DNA of 31,098 nt, from positions 1-31,098 of the forward strand of contig JAYSNU010000072.1 in assembly GCA_043723545.1 (NCBI GenBank). The letters run 5' to 3'. Positions 3,164 through 25,210 of the stretch are shown piece by piece (position 1 is the first letter of the stretch; each line of letters opens with the position of its first letter). The DNA is from Candidatus Nomurabacteria bacterium. Lineage in GTDB: Bacteria; Patescibacteriota; Minisyncoccia; Phycocordibacterales; UBA9973. The position numbers and the translations under genes were made by a program. The notes beneath the pieces were generated by a model that had not been told where the DNA came from, ran no database searches, and saw only the letters and a program-made list of their open reading frames with translations.

Positions 3164-4057
3164 ATGAATTCTATTGCATCAACAACAATATCAACAATAA
3201 CTCCAAATGAAAAGTTTATTCAGGATTGCAGAGACCTTGTCCAGTACTCCGACCATAATATGTCTTTTAGTCTTCTTCATTTGAATGTAGAAAGAAGTAA
3301 GCATATAGATGCTGTAAAGAAATTACTGGAAAATAGAAATCCAGATGTTGTTTGTTTTGAAGAAGCTATGTTTAAAGATGTAGAAATGTTTGCATCTCTA
3401 TTTGGTTATGAATTTGCTTTTGCACCCCTGTTTTCTTTAAAAGATGATGATGGTAGTGTAGATGATGAAGGTCCAGCGATTTTATCGAAATTTCCCATTA
3501 CGAAAATAAAAAAATCTTCATATCATGATGGACTTTTAAAAAATCCACCAGTTCTTACATTGGACGACTTTAAACCTATTGATAATCAAAGACCTAAAAA
3601 TAGATATTCTTATCATTATACTTTGCTTTCTGTATTATTAAAATTAGAAAATGATAAAAATATTACAATTAGTACTACACACTTTCCAGTCACTGATCAT
3701 ACGACACCAATGCATAAAGACCACGATTTACAAATTATTGAAAATATAGATGATATTGAACATGAAAAAATATTGTTAAATAAGTTGGTAGACATTATTC
3801 GTTTGATACCTGCCCCACTTGTATTTACGGCTGATTTAAATAATCCACGTGGCGAATATGTTTATGACACATTAGCTCATGAGTTGGTAGATAGAGTACC
3901 AATTCTAGAATCTAGTTTAGATTCTGAACTTCATCGTATGAAAGGTTTGAAACTTATGGTAGATACAATAATGACAACACCTGATGTTTTAGTTGATAGC
4001 TTTGAAGTTATAGAGGGTGTGAGTGATCATAAAGCATTTTTGGTAACTTTTGAATAA
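3164..4057 (+). CDS. Endonuclease/exonuclease/phosphatase (EEP) family protein; start may be 3260
   Basis: Motifs HLNVE, VCFEEA, TTHF, TADLN, VDTI and SDH in EEP order. Confidence 0.85.
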   Translation: MNSIASTTISTITPNEKFIQDCRDLVQYSDHNMSFSLLHLNVERSKHIDAVKKLLENRNPDVVCFEEAMFKDVEMFASLFGYEFAFAPLFSLKDDDGSVDDEGPAILSKFPITKIKKSSYHDGLLKNPPVLTLDDFKPIDNQRPKNRYSYHYTLLSVLLKLENDKNITISTTHFPVTDHTTPMHKDHDLQIIENIDDIEHEKILLNKLVDIIRLIPAPLVFTADLNNPRGEYVYDTLAHELVDRVPILESSLDSELHRMKGLKLMVDTIMTTPDVLVDSFEVIEGVSDHKAFLVTFE

Positions 4058-4352: not shown

Positions 4353-5507
4353 TTACTTCCCCATAAACCAATTAAATATCCTTTGATACCATTTAATTTT
4401 GATTGGTTTATCAGTTATAGAAACTTGACTATCTGTTGTAGATTTTTTTTCATTTAATACTTGTTCCTTTTGTTTATTAGAAGAATCAGAAGTGGTAGTA
4501 ATAGATTGTTTTGTTGAGACAGATGTCGCATCCATTATTATCCTATCTTTAAAAATAGGGTATTTTACAATAAATTTCTTAACTAGTGTAATATCATCTT
4601 CATTTTTATATTGCGGATAATTAGCTTTTATTGTTTTTGCGAGATCAAAAATCGGATAAGCGGGGTGTTCTTTGGTGGCAAGTTTTGGAATGGATTGATA
4701 ACCACTTAAAAAATCTACATAGTGTTGCATATCTTGTGGGGAACCACTATATTTATTAGCAATTAAATTAATATTCTCTATAATTTGATTAGCGGTCAAT
4801 GGTTTTATTTTTTTATATGCCAAAGAAGATGCTGAACTGAATATTTTATTATGAGTTTCTTCTAAAGTTTTTTCTAAACCAGTTAAATCAGCATCTGGAT
4901 ATAATTTTTGTAATTCTATATTAGATTTTTTCATTATAAAATCTAAAGAATCTTGTCGAGCCTTAATAGTTACACAAGCCAACTGTATATTATCTGGAGA
5001 AGTAAATCCTATTGAATCATAAAAATTAGGAGAAGCGTAATTGGCGTCATAAGTAACATACCCGGTTTTACATGCACATTCGTGAGTGTTTTGATCATAA
5101 ATACTATTTAAAGCAAAATTATCATTGCATGATTTATTTTGCTCTTGTATCGTGTTGGAATAATCGGAATTTTGTTGTAAAAGAGTCTTATTACTAGTAT
5201 TCAATCCTTCTCTAGAAGCCTGTAATTGCAAACAAGCATTATAAGAAAGTTGGTTTGCTTCATACATTATTTGTTCACTGCTTTCTCCAGAACATGGCAT
5301 CCCAACTTGTTTTTTAGTAGTTTGAAAATAATTATACTGACTATCTTCTCCTACTTGTTCAGTTGATTCTATATAGTAAAAACATTTATGTGGTGGTGGT
5401 GGAGTAGGAGCTACGCATTGTTCAGCAAATACATAGCGAGTGGAAAGAAAAACAGATAATAAAATTATGTTAAGAAATAATACTTTTTTTATAATTAATT
5501 TATTCAT
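4353..5507 (-). CDS. Secreted Cys-containing hypothetical protein with aromatic amphipathic C-terminus
   Basis: 384-aa ORF; N-terminal signal peptide, several Cys (CACKTGY), Ser/Thr-rich linker, ends KWYQRIFNWFMGK. Confidence 0.75.
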   Translation of the reverse strand: MNKLIIKKVLFLNIILLSVFLSTRYVFAEQCVAPTPPPPHKCFYYIESTEQVGEDSQYNYFQTTKKQVGMPCSGESSEQIMYEANQLSYNACLQLQASREGLNTSNKTLLQQNSDYSNTIQEQNKSCNDNFALNSIYDQNTHECACKTGYVTYDANYASPNFYDSIGFTSPDNIQLACVTIKARQDSLDFIMKKSNIELQKLYPDADLTGLEKTLEETHNKIFSSASSLAYKKIKPLTANQIIENINLIANKYSGSPQDMQHYVDFLSGYQSIPKLATKEHPAYPIFDLAKTIKANYPQYKNEDDITLVKKFIVKYPIFKDRIIMDATSVSTKQSITTTSDSSNKQKEQVLNEKKSTTDSQVSITDKPIKIKWYQRIFNWFMGK

Positions 5508-9735: not shown

Positions 9736-10782
9736 TTAGTCTTCTATTTTAGGTTTTTCTATTTCAAGAAGAGAGAGTTCGGGAGAAGTTCCAGCTATAC
9801 GCAAAACATCCTTATCTATTTTCTTTAATTCTTTATTTGAAGCATTGTAGTGATTTACTACAGTTCCGAGCGCATTGCCGAGTTTGTTGTGATATTCATC
9901 ATAAGATTTTAAATGTTTACCCAAGTCTTCAACTTTTTTAATTATTTCTTTTGCGGATTCTTCTATTTGGAGAGCCTTGAGACCTTGTAAGACAGTTTGC
10001 AAGTATGCCAGAAATGAAGTTGGTGAAGTTATTATAACTTTATATTTTCCAGCTGCACGTTGAATGAGATTTTCATTATCTTCATTTGCACCTACTTTAT
10101 TTGTAATTAAATCGTAATAAATAGCTTCATGAGGAATGAACATGAAAGCAAAATCAGTGGTACCTTTTGTGGGTTGTATATATTTTGAAGTTTCAGTGAT
10201 TCTATTTTTTAAATCTCCGACGAAGATACCTTCCAGTCTCTTTTTCTCTGTAGAGTCTTTTTCTTCCACCATTTTATTATAATTTTCTAAGGAGAATTTA
10301 GAATCTATGGGTATTATTTTATCTTTAACGAATACGACAGCATCTACAATGGTGCCATCTGGGAAAGGGTATTGCATTTGATAACTACCTGGTGGTAAAA
10401 CATTTTTTAAAACTGTTTCTAAATAGTATTCACCCAAAATTCCTCTTTGTTTGGGATTTTTCAAAATGTTCTCTAAGCTTTGAAGTTGATCAGCGAAAGA
10501 GATAACTTGTTTATTTGTTTCATCAAGTCTGGTAAGTCTCTCTGTCACGTCTCTTATTATTTTATTTGATTCTGAAGAATGAAATTGTAAGCTCTCACGA
10601 ACTTGTTTATGGCTTTCTCCAAGTTTATTATCTACTGTGCGAGATAGTTCATTTAATTGAGTTAGAATAAGGTTTAATCCTGTGCCATCTTGTGTGTTAT
10701 TTTCTTTCTTTTTACCAAAAATAAAATAAGTGATGATGCCACCGACAAGTACTGCTATGATGATCGTCAAAATATTATCCAT
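9736..10782 (-). CDS. rmuC: DNA recombination protein RmuC
   Basis: N-terminal TM, coiled coil, KQRGILGEYYLE, PIDSKFSL, TDFAFMFIPHEAIY. Confidence 0.92.
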   Translation of the reverse strand: MDNILTIIIAVLVGGIITYFIFGKKKENNTQDGTGLNLILTQLNELSRTVDNKLGESHKQVRESLQFHSSESNKIIRDVTERLTRLDETNKQVISFADQLQSLENILKNPKQRGILGEYYLETVLKNVLPPGSYQMQYPFPDGTIVDAVVFVKDKIIPIDSKFSLENYNKMVEEKDSTEKKRLEGIFVGDLKNRITETSKYIQPTKGTTDFAFMFIPHEAIYYDLITNKVGANEDNENLIQRAAGKYKVIITSPTSFLAYLQTVLQGLKALQIEESAKEIIKKVEDLGKHLKSYDEYHNKLGNALGTVVNHYNASNKELKKIDKDVLRIAGTSPELSLLEIEKPKIED

Positions 10783-10783
10783 A

Positions 10784-11497
10784 TTATTTATTCAAATAAT
10801 GTCTAAGAGTATAAATCCAATCCTCGTCTATTTGATCACTGGCTTCTTTTTGAGCAAGTAGCCATTCGAGATAACCTCTATCCATAGCAGCTACTTTTTC
10901 TATCTTTTTGCCTAAATGTTTACCGAAGTTGAAAGTTTTTAGTATCGAAGGATGAGAAGAAATCTCTATCATTTGTTCTATTGCGCTATTGTCTTCAACG
11001 CCACTTTCATCTATTATTTTCTTTTTTAATCTTTCAAATAGTTGTTCGAGTACAAGTACATCACCTAATGCATCATGAGCAGTAGCGTCTATTTCTATAT
11101 CTAGAAGATAGCGAAGATATTGAAGATTGTATCTATCTATTTTGCCATCTTTGTCTAAATGCCTTGCGACTCGAAGAGTGCAAATAAATTTATTTGGCAC
11201 GATATCTTCTTTTTTGATAATCATCAAATCAAATGGTGCATTGTGAGCTACAACGACAGTATTCTTATCTTCGAAAAGTTTTTTTATTTTAGGAGCATCA
11301 GTTTCGGCGAAAGATTTTTTATCTTCTACCATTTTATTTGAGATATGATGAACAGCTGAAGCTTCAGGGGGGATTTTTACTGGAGGTTTATACATAGCAG
11401 AGAATTCTTCTTTTCCATTTTTATAAGCTATTTGGCATAAAAAGTCCTTTTCTGTGTTTCCAGTTGTTTCTGTATCAAAAAATATGATTTTATTCAT
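10784..11497 (-). CDS. DEDDh 3'-5' exonuclease (DnaQ/ExoX-like) with C-terminal FGKH module
   Basis: FFDTETTG, VAHNAPFD, AHDALGDV; C-terminal FNFGKHLGK...YLEWL. Confidence 0.88.
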   Translation of the reverse strand: MNKIIFFDTETTGNTEKDFLCQIAYKNGKEEFSAMYKPPVKIPPEASAVHHISNKMVEDKKSFAETDAPKIKKLFEDKNTVVVAHNAPFDLMIIKKEDIVPNKFICTLRVARHLDKDGKIDRYNLQYLRYLLDIEIDATAHDALGDVLVLEQLFERLKKKIIDESGVEDNSAIEQMIEISSHPSILKTFNFGKHLGKKIEKVAAMDRGYLEWLLAQKEASDQIDEDWIYTLRHYLNK

Positions 11498-11607
11498 AGT
11501 GCTATTTTACCATATTTTTGGTATAATTTAAAAAGGAAATGTATTTTTAGAAAGTCTTGCGCAGGAGCTTAGAAAATAAAAATGGTAATCCATTTATTAT
11601 TTTCTTG

Positions 11608-11641
11608 AGCGACGAGCAGTTCGCTGGGTAAGCTTGCCCAG
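11608..11641. repeat. Small GC-rich intergenic palindromes (REP-like, single copy in window)
   Basis: AGCGA/TCGCT 11608-11625 and near-perfect palindrome CTGGGTAAGCTTGCCCAG 11624-11641. Confidence 0.4.
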
Positions 11642-11685
11642 ATAGATTGCTTTATAAAAACAGCGTTTCCTTTATAATTACTGAA

Positions 11686-12135
11686 ATGTTACATGAACAA
11701 TTAAAAAATAGTATTAAAGAAGCAATGCTAGCGAAAGATAAGGTTCGTCTAGAAACTATGCGTGGAATTGTGGCTGCTTGTATGAATACATTAGTTGCGA
11801 AGAGTAAAAAGCCCACTGATATGCTCACAGATGAAGAAGTGCTAGAAGTTATTACTCGTCTTTCAAAACAGCGTAAAGACTCAATTGAACAGTTTAAGAA
11901 GGGCAATAGGGATGATTTAGTCAAAGAAGAAGAAGCTCAACTTGCAATTCTCGAGACTTATTTACCCAAGATGATGGATAAGGGGGATGTAGAGAAATTG
12001 GCACAAAATAAAAAACTTGAACTCGGTATCACAGATGTTGCAAAAAAGGGTATGCTTATGGCCGCGCTAATGAAGGATTTAAAGGGAAAGGCAGATGGCA
12101 TGATTGTGAAAGAAGTTGTAGATGCTTTATTTTAA
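11686..12135 (+). CDS. yqeY: GatB/YqeY domain protein
   Basis: LKNSIKEAMLAKDKVRL...KQRKDSIEQFKKGNRDDLV..E..ILETYLP; TATAAT 11673-11678 favours ATG 11686. Confidence 0.9.
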   Translation: MLHEQLKNSIKEAMLAKDKVRLETMRGIVAACMNTLVAKSKKPTDMLTDEEVLEVITRLSKQRKDSIEQFKKGNRDDLVKEEEAQLAILETYLPKMMDKGDVEKLAQNKKLELGITDVAKKGMLMAALMKDLKGKADGMIVKEVVDALF

Positions 12136-12141
12136 TTCTCT

Positions 12142-12744
12142 ATGCATACAGTCAAACTTTTAATTCATTTAGTTGAGAATCATCAGTTGTTGGTTTACGC
12201 TATTATATTCTTTGGTTTAATTGTTGAAGGGGAAGTTCTGGTCTTATCTACAGGTGTTTTGATACATCTTGGAGCATTGCCAGTGTTACCGTCTTTTTTG
12301 ATTGTCTTAGGTGGAGGATTTGCTAAAGCTTTCTTAGGATATTATTTGGGAACTATAATTCGTGATAAATGGAGTAATGTTAATTTCTTTAAATTTTTTG
12401 AAAAAAGAGTACGCGAAACTGTTCCCAAATTTAAAGAGAAGCCCTTCTGGTCTATATTTACTTCTAAATTTATTTTTGGTGCGAACAACATTGTCATTTT
12501 ATTTTCTGGTTTTGAAAGGATAGATTTTAAAAGGTATTTGAAAGCTGAAGCTTTTGCGAATTTGGTATGGGCCCCGGGGTTACTTTTAATTGGATATTTG
12601 TTTTCCTTTACAGCATTGAATGTCAGTCGAGAAATTTCCCAATTCTCTTTAATTGTGTTACTTTTAATAATCCTATTCATAGTTATAGATAGATTGATAG
12701 GTTGGGCTTTTCAAATTTTTGAAGAATTTTATGATAACCAATAA
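12142..12744 (+). CDS. dedA: DedA/VTT family membrane protein
   Basis: EGEVLVLSTG, LGYYLG, IFTSKFIFG, multiple TM segments. Confidence 0.8.
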   Translation: MHTVKLLIHLVENHQLLVYAIIFFGLIVEGEVLVLSTGVLIHLGALPVLPSFLIVLGGGFAKAFLGYYLGTIIRDKWSNVNFFKFFEKRVRETVPKFKEKPFWSIFTSKFIFGANNIVILFSGFERIDFKRYLKAEAFANLVWAPGLLLIGYLFSFTALNVSREISQFSLIVLLLIILFIVIDRLIGWAFQIFEEFYDNQ

Positions 12745-13630
12745 GAAAAAATTAATAACACATGATGGTACTTTTCATGCAGATGATATTTTTGCCTGTG
12801 CGACGTTGGTATTAATGCTCGAAAAGGAGGGTATGGACTATGAGATAATTCGTACCAGAGACGAAGAAATAATTAAAATAGGAGATTTTGTTTTTGATGT
12901 CGGTGGTATTTGCGATGAAGATAAAAATAAGTTTGATCATCATCAAACTGGGGGGGCCGGCAAAAGAGAAAATGGTATAGATTATTCTTCTTTTGGATTG
13001 GTTTGGAAAAAGTTTGGTATAAAACTTTGTGATGATCAAAAGACAGTAGAATCAATTGATGAAAAACTGGTTGCACCTATTGATGCGTGGGACAACGGTA
13101 TTGATATATTTGAAAGTAAATCCAACGTTATGCCATATTCTATTAATCATATTTTTTTTGCTATGTTACCTACATGGCGTGAGGATAATTTAGATAAGAA
13201 TAAAATATTTTTACAATGTGTTGAAATAGCCAAAATTGTATTGGCCCGCGAAGTGATTCAAATTAATGATATGATTTTAGCTGAAGAATCTTTAACTAAA
13301 ATTTACAATGATGCGAAAGATAAAAGAATTATTGTTTTAGACAACAATTATCCTTTTGAAATTATGTTAAATAATTTTTCTGAACCAATTTTTGTTATTT
13401 ATCCAAGAAAGACTGATAATACATGGGGTGCGAAGGCGGTAAAAGAAGATTTAAAGACTTTTAAAAATAGAAAAGACTTCCCATTATTATGGGGTGGTCT
13501 CATGAATGAGGATTTACAGAAGATTACTGGTGTGCCTGACGCTATTTTTGCCCATCGTGCATTATTCATGGTTGTTGCCAAATCTCGTGAGGGAGCTATC
13601 AAATTAGCTCAAATTGCGTTAGTATCTTAA
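12731..13630 (+). CDS. MYG1/UPF0160 family (DHH-like) exonuclease
   Basis: THDGTFHADD, IRTRD, DVGG..D...FDHHQ, SSFGLVWK, FAH. Confidence 0.9.
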   Translation: MITNKKKLITHDGTFHADDIFACATLVLMLEKEGMDYEIIRTRDEEIIKIGDFVFDVGGICDEDKNKFDHHQTGGAGKRENGIDYSSFGLVWKKFGIKLCDDQKTVESIDEKLVAPIDAWDNGIDIFESKSNVMPYSINHIFFAMLPTWREDNLDKNKIFLQCVEIAKIVLAREVIQINDMILAEESLTKIYNDAKDKRIIVLDNNYPFEIMLNNFSEPIFVIYPRKTDNTWGAKAVKEDLKTFKNRKDFPLLWGGLMNEDLQKITGVPDAIFAHRALFMVVAKSREGAIKLAQIALVS

Positions 13631-13632
13631 AT

Positions 13633-14640
13633 ATGGCGTTTATAGATGAAATAAAAATATATGCAGAGGCCGGACGTGGTGGCGACGGTGTCGTACGTTG
13701 GCGTCAAGAAAAATTTGTACCCAAAGGTGGACCTGCTGGTGGTGATGGTGGCCGTGGAGGTGACTTTTTTGTAGAAGGTGTAAGAGATGTTCATATTCTT
13801 TCTAAATATAAAGCGAAGAAGTCTTTTACTGCGGAACGTGGTGAAGACGGTGGCAAGAAGAGTCTTCATGGTAAAAATGGAGAAGATTTTATCTTAAAAT
13901 TACCGCTTGGTTCCATTATTACAAATCTAGAAACGGATCAAAAATGGGAGCTTATAAATGAAGGAGAAAAAATAATGATTCTTCGTGGTGGTTATGGGGG
14001 TTTTGGTAATGAACATTTTAAAAGTTCTGTTAACACTACACCCATGGAGTCTAAAGAAGGCAAAGAAGGTGATAAGGGGGATTTTAAAATTGAACTTCAA
14101 ATTTTTGCTGATATTGGTCTAATTGGGCTTCCAAATGCCGGTAAATCGTCTCTTCTTAATGCTCTTACGAATGCAGATGCAAAGGTTGGTGATTATGAAT
14201 TTACCACTCTAGACCCTAATTTGGGTGATTTTTATGGCTATACTATCGCTGATATTCCGGGACTTATAGAGGGAGCAAATACTGGGAAAGGCTTAGGAGT
14301 TAAGTTTTTACGCCATATAAAACGTACTAAAATGCTAGCCCACCTCGTTTCATTTGAAAATTTATCAAAGAGTTCCACTGGCATGATAAAGGTTTACAAA
14401 CAGATTAGAAAAGAGTTGGAGAAATATGACAAAAATTTAGGCCTAAAAGAAGATGGCCTTGCTACCAAAGAGGAGATAATAATTTTGACTAAGACTGATG
14501 TTATAGATAATTCAAAAGTGGTTGCAAAACAAGTTGCAGATTTTAAAAAACTTGGAAATAAAGTTTTTGTTTTATCTCTGTATGACGATAAATCTGTGAA
14601 AAGTTTTCAAGATTCTCTAATCAAAATTCTTAAAAAGTAA
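13633..14640 (+). CDS. obgE: GTPase ObgE/CgtA
   Basis: AFIDE..AGRGGDG..WRQEK..P.GGP.GGDGG; GLPNAGKSS; YEFTTL; DIPGLIEGA. Confidence 0.96.
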   Translation: MAFIDEIKIYAEAGRGGDGVVRWRQEKFVPKGGPAGGDGGRGGDFFVEGVRDVHILSKYKAKKSFTAERGEDGGKKSLHGKNGEDFILKLPLGSIITNLETDQKWELINEGEKIMILRGGYGGFGNEHFKSSVNTTPMESKEGKEGDKGDFKIELQIFADIGLIGLPNAGKSSLLNALTNADAKVGDYEFTTLDPNLGDFYGYTIADIPGLIEGANTGKGLGVKFLRHIKRTKMLAHLVSFENLSKSSTGMIKVYKQIRKELEKYDKNLGLKEDGLATKEEIIILTKTDVIDNSKVVAKQVADFKKLGNKVFVLSLYDDKSVKSFQDSLIKILKK

Positions 14641-15299: not shown

Positions 15300-15372
15300 G
15301 TTTTTTGTTTTCAACATATTTTGAACATATTCTCATTGTTTTTATAAAGGGTTGAAATGTATAATTATCTTA

Positions 15373-18300
15373 ATGAGTTCGGACCTATTTAAAGATAATA
15401 AGAAATATATCTCAGCCAAGGAAGCCAGCTCTTTGACTGGCTATTCCAGAGACTACATAGGTCAACTTGCAAGAGGTAATAAAATTGATTCAAAAAAAAT
15501 TCGAGGTGTTTGGTATGTGGAAGAAAAATCAATTCTTCAGTATAACGATTTTTCAATTGAGTTGGGGACACCTATTGTGCATGAACCAGTTTTAAAGAAA
15601 AATGCACTTGTTTCAGAAAATTTAGATAAAAAAATCTTAGAATCAAAATTTACCTCAGTTATTTTACCTAAACCATTTGTACCCACACTAATTCATTTAC
15701 CTCCCAAAACTCTTTGGCCAGAAATAAAAAAAACTTCTCTAAAGAAAAACATATCTTTATCTCAAAAATTATTATTAACTACTTTTGGGTTTTTAGTTTC
15801 TGTGGGAGTATTTTCTTTAATTGATATTAGCTCTTCTCTTAAACAGCTTGATGGGCCTAATTTGACCGCGAATGTTCTTAATGAAAATCCTTCTTATTTT
15901 GGGAAACTATCTGGCAATGTTATTGATGCTTTTTCTGATCTTTTGTTTCATTATTTTTATGGACCAGAAGTTGATTATACAAATGTGGCTGTAATCAAAC
16001 ATTCAACTAAACCTATTCCCACACCTGAGGTTGCAACAGTGATTACACCAGAACTAATAACAAAAACAAAAATAGAATATCCTAAAACTATAATTATTCG
16101 TGGACCCGCAGGACCCAAGGGATCTACAGGATCACGTGGATTAACTGGGCTACAAGGACTTAAGGGTGATGCTGGTATTCAAACATTTAATTCTACGAGT
16201 TCTTCACAACCTGCTTATATTCCAGTTTATTCTGCACCTATTGGAATTATTCAATCCAATCCTGCAACCAATTATTCTGGTGGCAGTTTGTTTTCGGCGA
16301 CAGATTTGTCTTCTCGTAATTTCAATACCACTAATGCAAATATTGGTTCTTTAAATGTTTCGGGAGATTCTATATTACAGGGAAATTTAACAACCATGGC
16401 GGGAATATCTTCTTCTGGAACGATTAATTTCTCTGGATTAACTGCCTCAAGAGGAGTTTTTACTGATGGTTCAAAAAATTTAACTTCGACTGGAATCCTC
16501 GGCGCTGATCAAGGCGGCACCGGTATTGCCAACAATGTCGCTTCAACTTTTACAATTTCCGGAAACTTCGGAACAACTTTTACAATCAGTGGTTCAACCG
16601 CTGTAACTCTTCCAACTTCTGGAACACTTTATGGCACGGCTACTGGCTCTATCACATCTCTGCAACTTGCAACATCACTATCTGATGAAACGGGAAGTGG
16701 TTTAGCAGTTTTCGGAACAAGTCCAACAATTTCCGGTCTAACATTAAGTGGCTTTACTCCTGGTTCAATGCTTTTTACCGGAACATCTGGTGTTGTAATT
16801 CAAGATAATGCAAATTTATTTTTTGATGATACAAATAATAGATTGGGAATCGGCACAACAACACCGCTTGCAGTATTTGATTTAAGACAAGGTGTAAATG
16901 GCGAAACTATGTTTTCTGGTCGAAGATTTACTGATGTTGCCCCATCTGGAGATTTCATTACCTACAACAATGCTGCCAATGACACTGCACTCTTTCGGGT
17001 AGATAATTCTGGAAATCTTTTTGCAGGAGGAATTTTAAATTCAGGAAGTCAAACTATCACTTCCACCTCCACTCCGCAATTTCGAGTGCAATATAATGCA
17101 TTAAATGAAAGTTCTCTTTCAGTATCTTCAGCTGGAGTTGCAACTTATGGTTTTAATGGCACCACACCTCGAGCTATCTGGACTCCACAATCAAACCTTA
17201 CAAATACTTTTACTTTTACTGATTCATCATCAAATCCAATTTTGAATATTGATACAACGAATCAAAGAGTCGGAATTGGGACTGCCACATCAAACACTTT
17301 CAAACTCGAAGTCGCAGGCAACATCGGACCAGAAGCAGATAACACTAGAGACCTAGGTGCAGTCGCGAAAAGATGGGCGAACTTATACGCGACTAATATA
17401 ACCGGTGCAATCACTCCAACCGGATTCACTCAAGGTTCAGTTGCCTTCGCTGGAGCTTCTGGTATGCTCTCTCAAGACAATGCGAATTTTTTTATTGATG
17501 ATACGAACAATACATTAGGTATCGGTAGTACACGTACAGGAGTTATCTCAGCAACTAATGCTCGTCTGTTGCTAAAAGGTAGTGGTGTAACTTCCGCTAC
17601 TTCTTCTTTTGATGTTCAAGATTCTACTGGCGCTTCGAATTTCTTTGTACGTGATGATGGCAACGTCGGCATCGGGACGACTGCACCAGCACAAAAATTG
17701 GATGTCGTGGGGAATATTCAATTTAATACAAATGGAGGGCAAGCTATACTTGTTTCAAATTATAAAGGAGCTAATTCTGATGGGAATAACTTATTTATTG
17801 GTGGAGGTGGGCAGAGTAGTATTGGAGAAGTTGGAGCTACTTATAAAGGCTCTTCCAACACCGCTAATGGATATGGTTCTCTCTTATCCAACACCACAGG
17901 ATATCAAAACACCGCTAATGGGGTTTATTCTCTCTACTCCAACACCACAGGGCTTAGCAACACCGCTAATGGATATGGTTCTCTCTACTCCAACACCACA
18001 GGAAATCAAAACACCGCTAATGGTTTTCTTTCTCTCGCCTCCAACACCACTGGCTCTTCCAACACCGCTAATGGATTTTATTCTCTCTACAACAACACCA
18101 CAGGATATCAAAACACCGCTAATGGATATGGTTCTCTCACCTTCAACACCACAGGGCTTAGCAACACCGCTAATGGATATTATTCTCTCTTATCCAACAC
18201 CACAGGAAATAACAACACCGCTAATGGGGTTTATTCTCTCTACTCCAACACCACAGGAGTTAACAACACCGCTAATGGATATGGTTCTCTCTATGACTTC

Positions 18301-21300
18301 AATGTTTCTGACGGCTCGGGTAACAATACAGCAATTGGTTATAACACTGGTAGAGGAATTGTAACTGGTATTAATAACACAATTCTCGGAGCTAATGTAA
18401 CTGGACTTTCTTCTACATTATCAAACAATATCATTATCGCTGATGGGTCGGGTAATCAAAGGATTAATGTTGACTCAAGCGGCAACGTCGGAATAGGTGT
18501 TACGAATCCGCTACATAAGTTAACTGTTGGTAATTCTTGGACAGGTACATCTCCTACAGTGATGACAGATGAATTTTCTAGCTTGGCAGGTTATTTGCCA
18601 AGCATGAGTATAAATGCTTCTACTACAAACTCCACTCTTTATGTGAAATCAATCGGCCTAAATCTTCATAATAATGATTTAACTTTAGGTGTGCGTACAC
18701 CAGCAATATCATTTTCTCAACGAGTAAATGCTAATTATTCTGCTTCTATTGGAGCGATTGATGTTATGTCTGGTGGTGGCAAGAATTCTGATTGGATTTC
18801 TGGTTCTATGATTTTTAGCACTGCTGGTTCACAAGATTATGGTCTAAAGGAAAGAATGCGAATTACTTCTCTTGGCTATGTAGGTATAGGGAAAACTGAT
18901 CCAAATAATAAGTTAATGGTTGGGTTAAATACTACTAATGGTCTTGTTTTATTAAATGGTAATGGGGGGTTAGACCAAACCTTTCCGACTGTTAATTTTA
19001 CGACTAGTTCAAGTAATACAACGAATTATGTATATAGTGTTGGTTTAAACCTTCTTAATGATGACATTACAGCCGGTGGTCGTTCGGCCGCTCTTACATT
19101 TGGTAAGAAAACAACACAGTTTTCTGATACATTAGGAGCAATAGATGCAGTTGATGTTGGTGTTGGAGTAAATGAAGATTGGCATGGGGGAGATATGGTA
19201 TTTCATACTGCAAACAAAGAAACATTTGGCATCACAGAAAAAATGAGAATCACAAGCACCGGCAACGTCGGAATAGGTGTTACGAATCCGTCCGAAAAAC
19301 TCACGGTGGTGGGTGGAGACATTTCAGTCGATGGTGGTAAGGCTATCATGCTTGTCCACGGTAGTCTGAACAATAGCATTTTTAGAAATAATGGTACTGG
19401 GAATACAACTATTTCATCTCCTTCAAATAGCGGCGGAATATCTTTTATACTTAATGGAGATCCCAATATCGAAATTATGAGAGCTTATAGTGGCGCTTTT
19501 CAATCAGGGGTCGGCATCGGGATTACAAACCCATCAGCAAAATTACACATTGTTCAAAATCCTATTAATAATGGAATAAATCCAGGTATTATTTATGTTG
19601 GTGCTGTGCATAATAGCCAAACACTTTCAACTGAAATTTCATCTGTCAATATCACAACTGCGGGCAGGCAATGGGCGACAGGTAATATTTCTATGGAGAG
19701 AGAAGTATTAATTACTCAACCTACTTATTCATTCGTCGGAGCATCAACAATCACTGATGCGGCCACAATGAGCATCGTTGGCGCACCGATCAATGGCACG
19801 AATGCGACCTTGACGAACACTTATGGACTTCTCATCCAGGCAGGAGCCGTTTCAACTGCGATCAACAGCTACGGCCTTACAGTTAATGCTCAAACAGGAG
19901 CGACGAATAATTACGTTGCCACATTCTTGGGTGGCAACGTCGGCATCGGGACGACGGGGCCGGGGGCGAAATTGCAGATTAATACTGCAACAGGTGTTAA
20001 TTTTCAAGATGCTATAAAATTAGTCAAGGATGGAGGATATGGAGAAACTTCAATACAGAACTATTACTCAACTATTAATAATTTTGGAATGGGTTTTCAT
20101 ACTGATGCCGGAACGGTAATGGTAATAAATAACAGCGGCAACGTCGGTATAGGTACGATAAATCCAGGCACAAAATTGGTAGTTACAGGAACAGGCGCAG
20201 CCATTGGGGGAGGATTCATAGCCTCGGCCCCACTCTTCGTCAATGATTCAACACTAAGTACTCGGGGTGTCGCCATAGGTTATGATGCAACTCTTGAAGC
20301 CGGCTTTATTCAAGCGGGTAAGCAAGGTGTGGCATATGAACCACTTTTATTGAATCCAAACGCCGGAAACGTCGGCATTGGGACGACGTTTCCGGTGTCA
20401 AAATTTCACGTATCAGGCGGCGGTGCAACTGGAAGCGTCGATAGCAGTACACTCTTGATGATTGACGGAACTGGTGACGGCATCGTCGCTCAGCTCAACA
20501 ATGCAAACGCAGCAAATGCCGAAACACTTCTCGCATTCTCATACCGCAATGCGGGTAATGCATCAGGAGCCGTTCCTGCTGCGATCGGATACAAAATAGA
20601 CTCTGACGGATTTACAGGGCAGACCAAGGGCGCGCTCGTATTCAAAACTCGAGGAGGTACGACCGGTGTCGCCCCAACTGAACGTATGCGCATTGACTCA
20701 AGTGGCAACGTCGGCATCGGGACGACGACACCGGCGATGAAGCTTTCCGTTGTTCAAGGTGCTTCAGGTGACCTTTATCCAACAAACACGCAGGCGATAT
20801 TCGAATATAACGCGAATGGTGGAATAGTTGTCGCAGTACCTGATGCGAATGCCGGGGGATTGTATTTTCCGAAGTCCACTGACGCATATTATTCCGGCAT
20901 TGAAAGAAGCACATCTAATCTGAACCTGAGGAATAACGGCTCGACGCGATTAACGATCGACTCTAGTGGCAACGTCGGCATCGGGACGACGGTGCCGGGG
21001 GCGAAGCTGGATGCTGTCTCGTCGACTGGAAGTGCGGGGAGATTTTCTGGATATACTTACACTAGGGTTGCAGCAGATGCCACATCGGGAACAATTCAAA
21101 TTGGTAGCAACACTAACTATTCAGGTTATATCGACTACGGTGGTAGTAGCGCCCCATCTGGATCAGTAAATTTGACATTCTCGAACTCGTACGATTCTCC
21201 GGCTGATGGTTTTTTGTTCCGTGGACGTACCAGTGGCACTGCCGTTAACGCAATGATGATTCAAGGCAACGGCAACGTCGGTATTGGGTTGACGAATCCA

Positions 21301-22932
21301 AGTGATAAGTTAGTAGTTTATGGAATTAATCCCGTTATTAGATTAACTGATTCTTCTCAAGGAAATACTTCTTTCCTCCAACAATTGGACAATGCAAATG
21401 GAGCAGCTTTGAGAATATATGACGGCACACTTTACAGTACTTATTTCAAGGGTGGCAACGTCGGCATCGGGACGACGAATCCGGGGGCGAAATTAGAAGT
21501 TAATGGATTTACGAAAATTACATCTGGCTCAGTCGATTCTAATTGGAATGAACAATTATTGGTGTTAGGCAATGGTACGTATGACCCAAAAATTGTTCTT
21601 GGTTCAAATAATGGTTATCGTTGGAGCATTAGAAATGCCGACCCATCTTCCAGTGGTCAGCTATCGTTTAGATATGAAGAAGGTTCTTTAGACGCAATGA
21701 CAATATCAAGAAACGGCAACGTCGGGATTGGGACGACGGCACCAAGTCAAAAATTAGAAGTAATGGGTGATGTTCAGATTAACGGTGGTTTACACCTTGA
21801 TGCGGGTGCTGGAGCCACCTCTCCTTTATCTGGGATTATACTTGCTGGTAAATATGAAGGAGCTTTATATTCAAATGGAGGTATTCGTGCTAATGGATTT
21901 CAACAAAATTCTCCATATGATGGTGGAGTTTCATTACAAAGAAATTACTATAATGGTGCTGCATACGTTTATCAAGATGTATTAAATGTTACTGGCGCAG
22001 GCAACGTCGGGATAGGGACGACGGCGCCGGGCGCACCACTCGAGGTCAAGGGTACGAGCACAGGTGGCACTATCGCCAAGTTCACCGATCTCAACACCAC
22101 CGGCTGTACCCTCGCGACTGGTGGCACAATTTCTTGTAGTTCAGATCAAAGATTGAAGAAGAATGTCACGGATATAAGTTATGGGTTGGATACAGTGATG
22201 TCATTACACCCAGTACTCTTTAATTGGAATTATGAAAATGATGGTACAACAAAAAATCTTGGTTTCATCGCCCAAGAAGTCGAAATTGTAGTCCCTAAAT
22301 TAGTTTCTACTGATGATGGTGGAATGAAATCTTTAAATACTACAGCGATAGTTCCTATTTTAACGAAATCGATTCAAGAATTAAATTTAAATATGAAATC
22401 AATATCAGAACCTATACCCACAATCGGTTCTTTTGGAGATAAATTTTTTACAAATTTATTTGCTCGACTTATAGCATGGTTCGCTAATAGTGCAAATGGG
22501 ATCGGAGAATTTTTCGCAAAGAAAGCTACACTCGAAGAAGTGTGTTTGAAAGATGCTACCGGCACATCTTGCTATAACAGAACTCAGCTAGATACTTTGC
22601 TTGCCAGCGCCGTGACTTCCGCGCAAGGCGCGCAAGGCGAAACCTTACGCACAAAACCAGAGGTTTCTCCAGTAGTAGATACGATAGCTCCGGTCATTAC
22701 ATTGACAGGTGAAACAAATATTACCCTCAATGTTGGGGATACATATACTGAAGCAGGGGCAACTGCCACTGACAATGTAGATACAAATGTTGCTGTGGTG
22801 ATTTCTGGAACAGTTGATACGACTGTCGCTGGTACATATATTGTTAATTATAATGCGCAAGACACAGCAGGGAACAAAGCAATAGAAGTTATCAGAACAA
22901 TTAATGTCACCGTCCTTGGTGGGACCCCTTAA
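15373..22932 (+). CDS. Giant membrane-anchored fibre/adhesin-like protein: N-terminal HTH, TM, short collagen-like stretch, GNVGIGT-module stalk, peptidase S74 chaperone, C-terminal DUF5011-like Ig domain
   Basis: YISAKEASSLTGYSRDYIGQLAR (HTH); LLLTTFGFLVSVGVFSLI (TM); GPAGPKGSTGSRGLTG; many GNVGIGTT repeats; SDQRLKKNV...GFIAQEV (S74); DTIAPVITLTG...TATDNVD...GTYIVNY (DUF5011-like). TATAAT 15360-15365 favours ATG 15373. Confidence 0.88.
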   Translation: MSSDLFKDNKKYISAKEASSLTGYSRDYIGQLARGNKIDSKKIRGVWYVEEKSILQYNDFSIELGTPIVHEPVLKKNALVSENLDKKILESKFTSVILPKPFVPTLIHLPPKTLWPEIKKTSLKKNISLSQKLLLTTFGFLVSVGVFSLIDISSSLKQLDGPNLTANVLNENPSYFGKLSGNVIDAFSDLLFHYFYGPEVDYTNVAVIKHSTKPIPTPEVATVITPELITKTKIEYPKTIIIRGPAGPKGSTGSRGLTGLQGLKGDAGIQTFNSTSSSQPAYIPVYSAPIGIIQSNPATNYSGGSLFSATDLSSRNFNTTNANIGSLNVSGDSILQGNLTTMAGISSSGTINFSGLTASRGVFTDGSKNLTSTGILGADQGGTGIANNVASTFTISGNFGTTFTISGSTAVTLPTSGTLYGTATGSITSLQLATSLSDETGSGLAVFGTSPTISGLTLSGFTPGSMLFTGTSGVVIQDNANLFFDDTNNRLGIGTTTPLAVFDLRQGVNGETMFSGRRFTDVAPSGDFITYNNAANDTALFRVDNSGNLFAGGILNSGSQTITSTSTPQFRVQYNALNESSLSVSSAGVATYGFNGTTPRAIWTPQSNLTNTFTFTDSSSNPILNIDTTNQRVGIGTATSNTFKLEVAGNIGPEADNTRDLGAVAKRWANLYATNITGAITPTGFTQGSVAFAGASGMLSQDNANFFIDDTNNTLGIGSTRTGVISATNARLLLKGSGVTSATSSFDVQDSTGASNFFVRDDGNVGIGTTAPAQKLDVVGNIQFNTNGGQAILVSNYKGANSDGNNLFIGGGGQSSIGEVGATYKGSSNTANGYGSLLSNTTGYQNTANGVYSLYSNTTGLSNTANGYGSLYSNTTGNQNTANGFLSLASNTTGSSNTANGFYSLYNNTTGYQNTANGYGSLTFNTTGLSNTANGYYSLLSNTTGNNNTANGVYSLYSNTTGVNNTANGYGSLYDFNVSDGSGNNTAIGYNTGRGIVTGINNTILGANVTGLSSTLSNNIIIADGSGNQRINVDSSGNVGIGVTNPLHKLTVGNSWTGTSPTVMTDEFSSLAGYLPSMSINASTTNSTLYVKSIGLNLHNNDLTLGVRTPAISFSQRVNANYSASIGAIDVMSGGGKNSDWISGSMIFSTAGSQDYGLKERMRITSLGYVGIGKTDPNNKLMVGLNTTNGLVLLNGNGGLDQTFPTVNFTTSSSNTTNYVYSVGLNLLNDDITAGGRSAALTFGKKTTQFSDTLGAIDAVDVGVGVNEDWHGGDMVFHTANKETFGITEKMRITSTGNVGIGVTNPSEKLTVVGGDISVDGGKAIMLVHGSLNNSIFRNNGTGNTTISSPSNSGGISFILNGDPNIEIMRAYSGAFQSGVGIGITNPSAKLHIVQNPINNGINPGIIYVGAVHNSQTLSTEISSVNITTAGRQWATGNISMEREVLITQPTYSFVGASTITDAATMSIVGAPINGTNATLTNTYGLLIQAGAVSTAINSYGLTVNAQTGATNNYVATFLGGNVGIGTTGPGAKLQINTATGVNFQDAIKLVKDGGYGETSIQNYYSTINNFGMGFHTDAGTVMVINNSGNVGIGTINPGTKLVVTGTGAAIGGGFIASAPLFVNDSTLSTRGVAIGYDATLEAGFIQAGKQGVAYEPLLLNPNAGNVGIGTTFPVSKFHVSGGGATGSVDSSTLLMIDGTGDGIVAQLNNANAANAETLLAFSYRNAGNASGAVPAAIGYKIDSDGFTGQTKGALVFKTRGGTTGVAPTERMRIDSSGNVGIGTTTPAMKLSVVQGASGDLYPTNTQAIFEYNANGGIVVAVPDANAGGLYFPKSTDAYYSGIERSTSNLNLRNNGSTRLTIDSSGNVGIGTTVPGAKLDAVSSTGSAGRFSGYTYTRVAADATSGTIQIGSNTNYSGYIDYGGSSAPSGSVNLTFSNSYDSPADGFLFRGRTSGTAVNAMMIQGNGNVGIGLTNPSDKLVVYGINPVIRLTDSSQGNTSFLQQLDNANGAALRIYDGTLYSTYFKGGNVGIGTTNPGAKLEVNGFTKITSGSVDSNWNEQLLVLGNGTYDPKIVLGSNNGYRWSIRNADPSSSGQLSFRYEEGSLDAMTISRNGNVGIGTTAPSQKLEVMGDVQINGGLHLDAGAGATSPLSGIILAGKYEGALYSNGGIRANGFQQNSPYDGGVSLQRNYYNGAAYVYQDVLNVTGAGNVGIGTTAPGAPLEVKGTSTGGTIAKFTDLNTTGCTLATGGTISCSSDQRLKKNVTDISYGLDTVMSLHPVLFNWNYENDGTTKNLGFIAQEVEIVVPKLVSTDDGGMKSLNTTAIVPILTKSIQELNLNMKSISEPIPTIGSFGDKFFTNLFARLIAWFANSANGIGEFFAKKATLEEVCLKDATGTSCYNRTQLDTLLASAVTSAQGAQGETLRTKPEVSPVVDTIAPVITLTGETNITLNVGDTYTEAGATATDNVDTNVAVVISGTVDTTVAGTYIVNYNAQDTAGNKAIEVIRTINVTVLGGTP
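17659..22023 (+). repeat. Dispersed in-frame GC-rich junction motif GGCAACGTCGG (12 copies)
   Basis: Starts at 17659, 18481, 19261, 19933, 20137, 20365 (GGA variant), 20704, 20968, 21271, 21454, 21715, 22000. Confidence 0.92.
17857..18294 (+). repeat. Coding tandem repeat, 51 nt / 17 aa (NTANGxxSLxxNTTGxx), 8 full copies plus one partial
   Basis: AACACCGCTAATGG recurs every 51 nt from 17857 to 18265. Confidence 0.95.
22621..22651 (-). repeat. REP family A copy (plus half-site) in-frame within giant CDS
   Basis: 22629-22651 matches the reverse complement of the REP at 21/23, preceded by half-site GCGCAAGGC; encodes AQGAQGETLR. Confidence 0.8.
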
Positions 22933-22989: not shown

Positions 22990-23649
22990 CTATTCCTTTG
23001 TAAAAGAAAGCCAGAATCTAATCATTTCTTTGAAATTAGTAGTATTTTCAAAATACTGAGGGAAAGCTCTCTCATTGATTATCACATTTTCTGTCCTGTT
23101 TAAATTGATATATTTTCCGTAGCTTGAATATTGATATTCTGTTAAAAATTTTTCTGCTTTCGTTTGATTTTTTATTCCATTTTTTTTCCAAGTTGCATCA
23201 ATTAATTTGATTGGATTTAGATGTATGTATGAATAAATATATTTTAAATAGTTATCATCATCTAAGTGTTCTGCTTTAAAAACACCTTGAAACAAAACCC
23301 CATTACGTTCGTATTTTTTATTGAAATACATAGTGTAAGCAGTCGTTAATTTTTGCATAAATAAACTTATACTATTTTCTGTTTTTTCTTTTAATAAAAG
23401 ATGGAAATGATTTGGCATTAAGCAATATGCTCCAATTTCTACCAAATTTTCTCCACGATCTTTCTCAAACAAATCTTTAAATGATTGTCTTCGCGTGTCG
23501 ATACGGATAGGTTCTTTAGAATTAGCAAGATAAAGAAGTATGATAAATCTTTCGTAATCATTTTTTGTAATAAATATTCTTCTTTTATCGGTTCCTCTAT
23601 TATAAATATGATAAAATTCATTAATTGAAAAAGTTATTGGACGTGACAT
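22990..23649 (-). mobile_element. REP-associated tyrosine transposase (RAYT, Y1 HUH family)
   Basis: YHIYNRG, AYCLMPNHFHLL (HUH), YFNKKYER.G.LFQG, YIHLNP (catalytic Tyr), YSSY; identical palindromes on both sides. Confidence 0.92.
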
Positions 23650-23700: not shown

Positions 23701-23740
23701 TAGAAATAATTTTTGAAGAGAATATGTTAAAATGAGCGTT

Positions 23741-25210
23741 ATGAAGAAAAAATATTATCCGACAATAGGACTCGAAATACATGCAGAATTAAAGACACAA
23801 ACAAAGATGTTTTGTGCTTGCAAGAATGACCCTGACGAAGAAAAACCCAACAAAAACGTTTGTCCTGTATGTATGGCTCACCCCGGTGCATTGCCAGTAA
23901 TAAACAAACAAGCGGTAGAAAATGTCATTAAAGTCGGTCTTGCTTTGGGCTCCACTATCGCCAACTTTTCAGAATTTGATAGAAAAAATTATTTTTATCC
24001 AGATATACCGAAGGGTTATCAGATTTCGCAATATAAATATCCAATAGTTTCTGGTGGAGCTTTGGCAAATATGGACATTACTCGTATTCACTTGGAAGAA
24101 GACACAGGCAATAACAAACACCTAGATATAGATAAATCTTCCCCTACCCCCGGGGTAGGGGAAGAGGGATATTCTCTGATTGATTTTAATCGTGCTGGAG
24201 TGCCTTTGATGGAACTTGTAACTGAAGCGCATACCTTTGATACGGCGGAAGAAGCTGCAAAAGTTGCTTCCAATTTTGCTAAAGAATATCAATTACTTCT
24301 TTGGTATCTTGGTGTTTCCGAAGCAAATATGGAGAAAGGTGAAATGCGCGTAGAAGCGAATGTTTCTATTTCACCAGATAAAGATAAAAAGTGGAATGAA
24401 TATGTAGAAGTTAAAAATTTGAATTCTTTCCGTAGTGTTGAGCGAGCTATCAAATTTGAGGTAGAAAGAATGGTAGAACTTTTTGAAACAGGGCATGAGT
24501 CTGAAATAGTTAAAGAAACTCGAGGCTTTGATGAATCTAAACAGAAAACATTTTCCCAAAGAAGAAAAGAGTCTAGTCATGATTATAGATATTTCCCTGA
24601 CCCTGATTTGCCAAAAATGAAATTACATAGTGCATTTGATTTGGAAAAAATGGAGAAAGAATTACCAGAACTTCCTGTGGCCAAGCGGGCACGATATAAG
24701 AATGATTTTGGAATTAAAAATGAAGATATTGAAGCGTACATAAATGATATGACTCTCGGTGTATGGTTTGAGAATATTGCAAGAATTCTTGATAACAAAG
24801 AGAAAATAAAAATTGCCTCCAACTACATCACAACAGATTTTATTGGTTTAAAGAAAAATAATAAAGAGGTAAACATGCCAAGTGCCAAGAATATGGCAGA
24901 ACTCGCCTCGATGATTATGGAAGGAATGATAAGTTCTCGCGGAGCGAAGGACATCTTAGCTATGATTGTAGTGAAAGATCAAGCCCCAATGAAAATTGCT
25001 CTTGAAAAAGATTTGTTACAAAAGAATGATGTAGGTGTATTAAAAGAAATTGCACAAAAAATTATTGATGCAAATGAAAAAGTTGTAGCTGATTATAAGG
25101 GTGGTAAAGAACAAGCTTTAATGTCACTCGTGGGTCAAATTATGAAAGAAACGAAGGGAAGTGCTAATCCAGAAGTAGCTAGGAAGACTTTAATAGATTT
25201 GCTAAAATAG
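23741..25210 (+). CDS. gatB: Asp/Glu-tRNA amidotransferase subunit B
   Basis: IGLEIHAEL, FDRKNYFYPD.PKGYQISQ, HLEED, NRAGVPL.E, DYRYFPDPDL, GQIMK. Confidence 0.97.
   Translation: MKKKYYPTIGLEIHAELKTQTKMFCACKNDPDEEKPNKNVCPVCMAHPGALPVINKQAVENVIKVGLALGSTIANFSEFDRKNYFYPDIPKGYQISQYKYPIVSGGALANMDITRIHLEEDTGNNKHLDIDKSSPTPGVGEEGYSLIDFNRAGVPLMELVTEAHTFDTAEEAAKVASNFAKEYQLLLWYLGVSEANMEKGEMRVEANVSISPDKDKKWNEYVEVKNLNSFRSVERAIKFEVERMVELFETGHESEIVKETRGFDESKQKTFSQRRKESSHDYRYFPDPDLPKMKLHSAFDLEKMEKELPELPVAKRARYKNDFGIKNEDIEAYINDMTLGVWFENIARILDNKEKIKIASNYITTDFIGLKKNNKEVNMPSAKNMAELASMIMEGMISSRGAKDILAMIVVKDQAPMKIALEKDLLQKNDVGVLKEIAQKIIDANEKVVADYKGGKEQALMSLVGQIMKETKGSANPEVARKTLIDLLK
24137..24165. repeat. Perfect 14-bp inverted repeat in-frame within gatB
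   Basis: TCTTCCCCTACCCC-C-GGGGTAGGGGAAGA, encoding SSPTPGVGEE. Confidence 0.85.

Follow-up and report, generated by a model that had tools for sequence, protein, structure and literature searches.

Why would a gene keep the same silent bases at a dozen places along its length? The question is raised by a giant fibre gene of a Candidatus Nomurabacteria bacterium, in which variable modules follow one another in a single reading frame and meet at a short GC-rich sequence. The gene lies in what we call the window, the whole stretch of DNA analysed (31,098 nucleotides), which is the entire 31-kb contig C72 of a typical Patescibacteria genome of 607 kb and 34% GC, recovered in 95 contigs from a sediment metagenome. 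An earlier reading of the window (hereafter the original prediction) had proposed that the recurring sequence is a DNA-level site for shuffling the cassettes of a host-binding fibre, in the manner of an integron or shufflon. Our analysis partly supports that interpretation. We hold it to be rather probable that the junction supplies the homology on which ordinary homologous recombination or gene conversion is anchored, and that its fixed codons are the footprint of this process.

Silent sites at the junctions of the fibre gene

The reading frame and its junctions are given below. "Master" denotes the 24-mer GGCAACGTCGGCATCGGGACGACG, and the 11-mer is GGCAACGTCGG.

15352..22932, + strand: giant fibre gene, TTG start at 15352, 2,526 residues, from the list of open reading frames (ORFs) and the translation
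16837..17532, + strand: diverged junction-like motifs NRLGIG (16837), QRVGIG (17263) and NTLGIG (17509), without the master 9-mer and mostly in ordinary codons
17659..17682, + strand: junction 1, GNVGIGTT; seven of eight codons are those of the master 24-mer
18481..18504, + strand: junction 2, GNVGIGVT; has the 11-mer; 31-nt identity with junction 4
18874..18897, + strand: junction 3, diverged GYVGIGKT between two paralogous modules; two of eight master codons
19261..19284, + strand: junction 4, GNVGIGVT; has the 11-mer
19504..19527, + strand: junction variant SGVGIGIT, one codon shorter, keeping GTC GGC ATC GGG; start of the module common to genome G004
19933..19956, + strand: junction 5, perfect master 24-mer; end of the module common to G004
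20137..20160, + strand: junction 6, GNVGIGTI; has the 11-mer
20365..20388, + strand: junction 7, beginning GGA AAC GTC; sole copy without the full 11-mer
20704..20727, + strand: junction 8, perfect master 24-mer
20968..20991, + strand: junction 9, perfect master 24-mer
21271..21294, + strand: junction 10, GNVGIGLT; has the 11-mer
21454..21477, + strand: junction 11, perfect master 24-mer
21715..21738, + strand: junction 12; has the 11-mer; six of eight master codons
22000..22023, + strand: junction 13, last before the conserved C-terminal part; similarity to the related proteins P0004 and P0118 climbs sharply from here

Each junction encodes the start of GNVGIG(TT)xPxxKLxV. The counts and the frame reported by the original prediction are confirmed: AACGTCGG occurs 12 times in the window, always on the plus strand (shuffled sequences: mean 0.26, maximum 2), GGCAACGTCGG occurs 11 times (none in shuffles), and all copies are in frame within the ORF at 15352-22932. 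One other AACGTCGG exists in the whole 607-kb genome, on contig C81. The 23-mer GGCAACGTCGGCATCGGGACGAC stands at five junctions (17659, 19933, 20704, 20968 and 21454). Where an identical 30-mer had been noted, at 18481 and 19261, 31 of 31 nt agree (18480-18510 and 19260-19290), and the junction said to have diverged towards AT-rich codons, at 18874, indeed reads GYVGIG, with TAT, GTA, GGT and ATA as its differing, AT-ending codons. The modules are 55-268 residues long, with GC contents of 0.35-0.52 and GC contents at third codon positions (GC3) of 0.15-0.46. They differ in sequence and composition as described, and the adjacent pair at residues 1044-1174 and 1175-1303 is paralogous (41% identity, E 7e-30).

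The claim that selection on the protein could not have fixed the GC-rich third positions stands up to a test of codon use, for which the repeat part of the gene with its junctions masked served as background. In that part GGC, AAC and GTC have frequencies of 15.7%, 32.4% and 17.9% (10.6%, 17.6% and 10.2% genome-wide). The triple GGC AAC GTC, expected at about 0.9%, is found in 11 of 12 junctions (binomial P about 3e-22). Since the three GIG-type motifs upstream mostly use ordinary codons, the GIG(T) peptide alone does not demand GC-rich ones. The GC3 profile is box-shaped: it lies at background up to codon -1, rises to 0.8-1.0 over codons 0-7 (GNVGIGTT) and returns to background from codon 8, and the consensus of this island is the 24-mer GGCAACGTCGGCATCGGGACGACG. 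When the window gene is compared with its relatives by BLASTN, junction islands of 23-60 nt are all that match. These results support a constraint at the junction that acts on DNA, not on protein.

The same codons might instead be a matter of frozen ancestry, the gene or its repeat part having come recently from a GC-rich donor and the junction, with no role in recombination, not having decayed. GC-rich members of the order do exist (fibre GC3 is 0.70-0.74 in G080, where the triple is expected at about 18%), and three modules of the window have a GC3 of 0.44-0.46 against 0.21 in neighbouring genes. However, other modules in the window with a GC3 of only 0.15-0.25 are flanked by the same 11-mer, and body GC3 is below 0.5 in most genes that bear the master sequence. 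A module shared with G004 is saturated at synonymous sites, yet its junction is master in the window and AT-type in G004. The body of the window fibre has a GC3 of 0.28, against 0.21 in the neighbouring genes, and across about 30 related genes body GC3 tracks that of the neighbouring genes (0.21 to 0.63), whereas by their junctions the genes fall into two classes, with a GC3 of 0.75-1.0 in the one and the same GC3 as the body in the other. Across 47 genes, junction score was not positively correlated with flank GC3, so the junction codons were not brought in along with GC-rich modules. We therefore rejected both whole-gene and module-wise import from a GC-rich donor as the cause. The GC-rich codons are a local island rather than the trace of a whole-gene transfer. 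Frozen ancestry is thus largely refuted, and we regard it as very improbable.

One joint in bacteria, archaea and viruses

The signature is not peculiar to the window. In 121 genomes sampled evenly from the order there are 366 GNVGIG-coding sites, spread over 74 genomes, and a single triple of the 32 synonymous ones, GGC AAC GTC, is used at 109 of them. Its use clusters by gene (17 of 19 sites in G095, 16 of 23 in G025, five of five in G080). Counterexamples of AT type are found in G083, G042 and G089, with the triple at one of 24, one of 20 and none of 12 sites. Copy number per gene was tried as a predictor of the master state and rejected: G083 has 24 copies with one master, and G095 has 19 copies with 17. 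In a phylum-level sample of 201 genomes, the exact 23-mer GGCAACGTCGGCATCGGGACGAC makes up 28 of 157 GNVGIGTT sites (18%) and is the commonest of 6,144 synonymous forms. The next commonest forms are its one-step neighbours, which gives the spectrum a star-like shape.

Beyond the phylum, the exact 23-mer occurs in at least 120 IMG/VR viral contigs and at least 120 genome contigs. Among the matches listed, it is found in many classes of the Candidate Phyla Radiation (CPR), in DPANN archaea (on contigs 190-457 kb long), and in Methanoregula, Elusimicrobia, Omnitrophica, Acidobacteria, Bacteroidia and Planctomycetes. It lies in frame in a fibre-like ORF at 231 of these 240 loci, and body GC3 is below 0.5 in 164 of the 231 ORFs. 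The same listed ORFs hold 407 further GNVGIGTT sites, a count that leaves out one ascertained copy per ORF, and 138 of these carry the 23-mer against 0.07 expected from the ORFs' own codon use. The contexts of the 240 listed loci range from contigs with phage tail-assembly chaperones through capsid genes of the nucleocytoplasmic large DNA virus (NCLDV) type to cellular chromosomes. Ten IMG/VR contigs with the exact 23-mer (L154:5866-6924 and nine others) encode a double jelly-roll, NCLDV-type major capsid protein, so the master joint is not confined to tailed phages. Cultured phages in INPHARED give partial matches alone, for example in Synechococcus and Roseobacter phage fibres.

Identical junctions thus join modules that are unrelated in sequence and in length, which implies that the junction DNA is far younger than the modules. 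A full-text literature search returned no occurrence of the motif "NVGIGT", and neither the fibre nor its junction has an Rfam or NCBIfam hit. The quantitative silent-site signature, and the presence of one exact 24-nt joint across viruses, bacteria and archaea, appear to be new.

This breadth bears on a constraint at the level of mRNA or translation, by which the codons would be held in place through local structure, through a rare-codon pause that aids co-translational folding, or through their accuracy. Arguing for this, GGC, GTC, ACG and GGG are rare in the Nomurabacteria genome, a CGUCG-N9-CGACG stem can be drawn in the joint, and one copy folds at z = -2.8. Counter to this, the other copies gain nothing over shuffles in folding (z +0.5 to -1.3) and the paired third positions do not covary (P 0.28 and 0.77). 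On these grounds the hairpin CGTCG-N9-CGACG was set aside; a folded palindrome resembling attC was likewise looked for at the junction, which yielded a 5-bp stem without covariation and no Rfam match. The same exact codons are used in hosts whose fibre genes have a GC3 of anything from 0.23 to 0.76, and whose tRNA pools must be very different. Moreover, many homologous fibres have AT-rich junction codons, and a demand for rare codons would not single out any one of them. We consider a constraint of this kind improbable.

Module exchange and the role of the joint

If the junctions anchor recombination, segments that were copied or exchanged should end there. We collected similarity tracts of at least 90 nt and at least 80% identity within and between 32 fibre genes. 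In 78 of 214 cases a distinct end falls between -6 and +30 nt relative to a junction start, against 16.6 expected (P 2e-32), a signal that BLAST alignments extending into the conserved motif inflate somewhat. In one gene of G095 (L031, on G095:C1), where 17 of 17 junctions are master, two copies of a 238-nt module (gene positions 3379-3616 and 5119-5356) lie 580 codons from each other and are 99.6% identical, and the tract runs from +6 of one junction to +24 of the next. This double module is a junction-bounded conversion or duplication. Two genes of G025 (L011 and L013) have 664 nt in common at 98.9% identity, ending +28 into the first junction. Two viral contigs from different samples (L120 and L128) share one module of 317 nt at 98.4% identity, from -1 to +30, and two CPR loci of different lineages (L037 and L183) share one of 172 nt at 88%, from -1 to +23. 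Junctions at tract ends are also closer to the master than other junctions of the same genes (means of 5.32 and 4.60 of 8 codons; P 0.004). The part of the original prediction that speaks of cassettes is therefore supported: modules behave as cassettes, and copied or exchanged segments have the junction as their boundary.

Sharing bounded by junctions is seen in the window gene too. Its module at residues 1386-1535, between the junctions at 19504 and 19933, matches a module in G004, a genome of the same genus, at about 60-100% amino acid identity in 15-residue windows (74% by BLASTP over the core). At either junction identity drops to noise, and the flanking sequences show no relationship. At its 3' end the shared module meets a perfect master in the window and GGC AAT GTT GGA ATT GGT in G004, so the state of a junction is not inherited with its module. 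From the last junction on, similarity to P0004 and P0118 climbs to 60-80% (about 80% for P0004); in the P0004 gene the module bodies are AT-rich and five junctions are perfect masters, and in the P0118 gene no junction is. For the remaining window modules, the best matches come from various proteins and stand in various slots. No collinear orthologue of the gene was found in 40 congeneric genomes, where module-level matches lie scattered instead, and no close relative was confirmed in the genome contig collection, the best database hit being 45% identical.

Repeats of this kind could also deceive an assembler. Logan contigs built at k=31 from the source runs do break exactly at junctions (window 19261-21471). 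A chimeric assembly is nevertheless unlikely, as contig depth is even across the gene (8.1-10.4 in run X1) and housekeeping genes lie on both flanks. Apparent alternative joints in short contigs extend less than 50 nt on their shorter side, and 20-33 nt for those at junctions; with overlaps so short, they stem from the genes of other organisms that share the joint sequence. The same samples do hold other sequences that match a window junction and then diverge. Many related fibre genes stop at contig ends (L014, L016, L017, L033-L038 and others).

What, then, moves the modules? The integron- or shufflon-like part of the original prediction supposes a dedicated site-specific system (integron, shufflon, invertase, or Y1 transposase of the RAYT kind), whose enzyme would recognise the GC-rich site and move cassettes. 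A sharply defined and strictly conserved site of 11-24 nt, repeated 12 times, is what such an enzyme might use, and the fibre gene is followed, 58 nt downstream, by a Y1_Tnp gene that has relatives near three other master-type loci. But all 12 sites are direct repeats on one strand, with no inverted sites at the locus, and a Pfam scan of the 20 flanking ORFs of the window revealed no integrase, invertase or resolvase, nor any other tyrosine or serine recombinase. No gene recurs beside 40 related loci and the 240 master-bearing loci among the matches listed. The RAYT candidate was rejected, since the Y1 transposase does not track master junctions: G025 has 16 of them and no Y1_Tnp match, and G095 has 17, with its three Y1_Tnp genes on other contigs. 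A dedicated enzyme therefore seems to us the remotest of the explanations. The Y1 transposase gene of the window (IS200-like and RAYT-like; 22990-23649, minus strand) is single-copy in this genome. Its congener G008 has eight copies, and adjacency there may be chance.

The explanation we favour, recombination anchored at the junction, needs no dedicated enzyme. The protein would be a very long surface fibre that resembles a phage tail fibre, of the mosaic adhesive trimer (MAT) kind, and would serve to bind host cells. Each module would probably be one beta-helix subdomain that opens with the invariant peptide GNVGIGTT. The eight invariant codons would then be the sole place where unrelated modules can pair, and this near-identical 24-nt block could anchor ordinary homologous recombination or gene conversion of the RecA type. 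A perfect block of 23-24 nt is about the minimum for RecA-dependent recombination in E. coli, and RecA is encoded in the genome. We infer that machinery of this type does the exchange; in viruses, phage single-strand-annealing proteins could do the pairing. Whole modules could thereby be gained by duplication, converted, or swapped for others without loss of frame, inside one gene as well as between paralogues or genomes. Because every event would copy the junction too, junctions would become younger and more uniform than the modules they join. Repeated over a gene pool, this would homogenise them until one variant spread, as GGCAACGTCGGCATCGGGACGACG may have done in the fibre genes of viruses, CPR bacteria, DPANN archaea and others. 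Fixation would on this account be caused by recombination, whether through conversion, GC-biased repair or selection for compatibility.

Apart from the inflation of the tract-end signal, several points weigh against this reading. Genes with AT-type junctions are equally enriched (37 of 95 tract ends against 8.1 expected), so the GC-rich master is not needed for module-bounded rearrangement, and selection for in-frame, fold-preserving products alone could place the surviving breakpoints at module boundaries. The sharing with G004 is old, with saturated synonymous sites and 43% third-base identity, and no recent recombination event was seen within the window's own gene. At the window junctions the first three codons are fixed and the next three vary (GGC6/GGA2/GGT2/GGG2, ATC5/ATA4/ATT3 and GGG9/GGT3), a 5' bias for which conversion by itself does not account and which other genes show in mild form. 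Finally, the reading has no mechanistic account of why one of 64 GC-ending variants wins across domains of life.

A passive scar would account for some of this. Here recombination is random, only in-frame products that preserve modules survive, and GC-biased mismatch repair in the heteroduplex stretch gives rise to the master. The equal enrichment in AT-type genes fits this well. So does the coincidence of the island with the invariant peptide, the sole place where unrelated modules pair, and so do the third positions of GGCAACGTCGGCATCGGGACGACG, all eight of which are G or C, with the number of CpGs at the possible maximum. GC-biased repair would, however, predict any of the 64 GC-ending variants, whereas a single one dominates across phyla and viruses, and the junctions at which tracts end resemble the master more closely than the rest. 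The scar largely overlaps with recombination anchored at the junction and differs from it in the direction of causality. As a full explanation we find it unlikely, though deserving of more weight than a constraint on translation. The all-G/C third positions may point to GC-biased repair or to an advantage in duplex stability. Duplex stability was tried as an account of the master and proved uninformative, as GGCAACGTCGGCATCGGGACGACG ranks 8th of 24,576 variants and also 8th among the 64 GC-ending ones.

A stronger version of the anchor hypothesis, which we put forward only tentatively, is that GGCAACGTCGGCATCGGGACGACG is a selected "standard connector". Its silent sites would be kept because they enable module exchange by homologous recombination, and it would act as a DNA-level compatibility standard for a pool that spans tailed and NCLDV-like viruses, CPR bacteria, DPANN archaea and other phyla, with no dedicated enzyme. 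Selection of the joint for compatibility, if real, would make it a standard connector of natural origin, common to domains of life.

Host recognition in episymbiotic CPR bacteria, and in many uncultured viruses, is likely to depend on fibres of this kind, whose diversification governs who attaches to whom. Silent-site fixation of one joint offers a recombination footprint that can be read from sequence and counted across genomes, and by which genes with master junctions can be told from those with ordinary-looking junction codons. As the joint breaks short-read assemblies, fibre genes must be systematically fragmented in metagenomes.

The fibre, its surroundings and known systems

Other features of the gene, in order along the protein, are these.

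15769-15828, + strand: single hydrophobic helix, from the translation
16102..16182, + strand: collagen-like G-X-Y run, residues 251-277, from the sequence; Pfam Collagen E 0.0024, under the curated cut-off
17857..18282, + strand: NTANG tandem repeats in module 1, nine of 17 residues with a 51-nt period; 81-94% identity by self-BLASTN
22141..22305, + strand: Peptidase_S74 intramolecular chaperone domain, residues 2264-2318; Pfam PF13884, E 8.6e-14
22696..22908, + strand: bacterial surface immunoglobulin-like (Ig-like) domain at the C-terminus; Pfam PF16403, E 9.7e-16

An identical database protein (P0002) is annotated with an ATG start at 15373 and 2,519 residues. The order of parts is a helix-turn-helix (HTH)-like N-terminus, a hydrophobic helix, the collagen-like run, the variable modules, Peptidase_S74 with its catalytic SDxxxK motif (SDQRLK, residues 2264-2269), and the Ig-like end. 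The N-terminal part (15373-15830) comprises a segment that looks like the HTH of an excisionase or MerR, followed by the single hydrophobic helix; the protein does not start with a signal peptide. Two large homologues of the fibre contain Pfam HTH_17 (PF12728). Metagenome contig depth over the NTANG stretch (17857-18282) is 5-10x that of the rest of the gene, which implies similar repeats in many other organisms of the samples.

PHROG profiles place the protein with tail-fibre families (E 1e-40 and 1e-38). It has more than 3,000 homologues, in a search limited to 8,000 candidates; those with names are called "tail fiber domain-containing protein", and they span many Patescibacteria lineages and other phyla. 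The genomic setting is chromosomal, with Obg upstream of the fibre gene and GatB downstream. Housekeeping neighbours recur beside fibre genes (window 9736-14640 and 23732-25210; L047, L291, L025, L042 and L045). gatB adjoins fibre genes at five loci from different families, and a block with the RmuC exonuclease abuts the fibre gene in G013 and on the contig of P0004, and lies 4.6 kb upstream in the window. The fibre locus seems to be long-lived, with a content that turns over. At six loci, with junctions of both types (L014:2244-6629, L025, L036, L039, L043 and L044), a cluster beside the fibre gene encodes a protein of 470-610 residues that contains an fn3 domain, together with two others, of about 260 and 330 residues, that lack Pfam hits; at L014 a small HTH_17 protein comes next. 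The members of this cluster are possibly assembly or export partners of the fibre. A second fibre-like gene begins elsewhere in the genome (G000 contig C78:3493-3942), and its contig ends about 100 nt past a first junction reading GGC AAT GTC GGA ATC GGG. The genome thus holds at least one further fibre gene, lost by assembly.

How does this system compare with known ones? Short conserved DNA between modules has been proposed as the homology for exchange in a shared gene pool, an idea that is contested. The modular theory of phage evolution reportedly goes back to Botstein in 1980, and boundary sequences in lambdoid phages are said to have been described by Clark et al. in 2001. Linkers of the modular theory lie between genes, whereas that of the window recurs a dozen times within the reading frame of one gene, and its silent sites allow it to be quantified. 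The old idea thereby becomes measurable.

CdiA/Rhs polymorphic toxin genes have a conserved pre-toxin motif at one junction, with silent orphan cassettes downstream. The window gene is like them in having a conserved junction between a constant part and exchangeable cassettes, with recombination swapping the variable part. It differs in having many junctions, and no silent cassettes were found in the 95-contig assembly except for the second, truncated fibre gene. The polymorphic toxin systems are treated in overview in PMC3482391.

By sequence, the only relatives of the fibre with solved structures are the Bdellovibrio MAT fibres Bd2133, Bd1334 and Bd3182 (PDB 8OND, which is Bd2133, E 6.7e-8; 8OML, 3.5e-6; 8OJN, 3.3e-5; 7e-8 to 4e-3 overall), and the chaperone part alone matches the distal-tip chain of gp37, 6F45 (E 5e-4). 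The window protein would accordingly be placed with the tail-fibre-like S74 fibres, that is, in the S74 subfamily of the MAT superfamily. According to Caulton et al. 2024 (PMC10769870), the first beta-helix subdomain of Bd2133 begins at G683, the first G of GNLGLG, so a window module is most likely one beta-helix subdomain with the motif as its first strand. We infer a trimeric beta-helix fold for the modules from such sequence matches; a single-sequence AlphaFold2 model of residues 1775-2050 has a mean pLDDT of 36.8. Both systems place surface fibres on a bacterium living on other cells, start their subdomains with GN(V/L)G(I/L)GT, and end in a C-terminal S74 chaperone with SDxxxK; in both, chimeric ends have been exchanged in evolution. 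All 21 Bdellovibrio MATs are described there as having a signal peptide and then a domain of about 130 residues that is conserved and beta-rich. Unlike them, the window protein is about 2.5x longer, carries an HTH-like segment and a hydrophobic helix at its N-terminus, and has a collagen-like run and a terminal Ig-like domain. The passages of that article consulted here treat mosaicism at the protein level only and report no nucleotide-conserved joint.

The adhesin genes of T-even phages offer another parallel. The His boxes of gp37 and the glycine-rich motifs of gp38 have been suggested to be hot spots at which recombination shuffles the modules (PMC12032242, citing Tetart 1998 and Trojet 2011). 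The window motif is unrelated to these in sequence, with no hit to such a Pfam family; the gene has 13 or more modules and lies on a cellular chromosome beside housekeeping genes. Its joint of 23-24 nt is conserved at silent sites across viruses, bacteria and archaea, and we found no account of the like for the T-even motifs. What the two have in common, on the account given there, is variable host-recognition segments between short conserved motifs, exchanged by ordinary homologous recombination with no dedicated enzyme. By analogy, then, the mechanism of the window fibre may be closest to the conserved-motif recombination of T-even phages.

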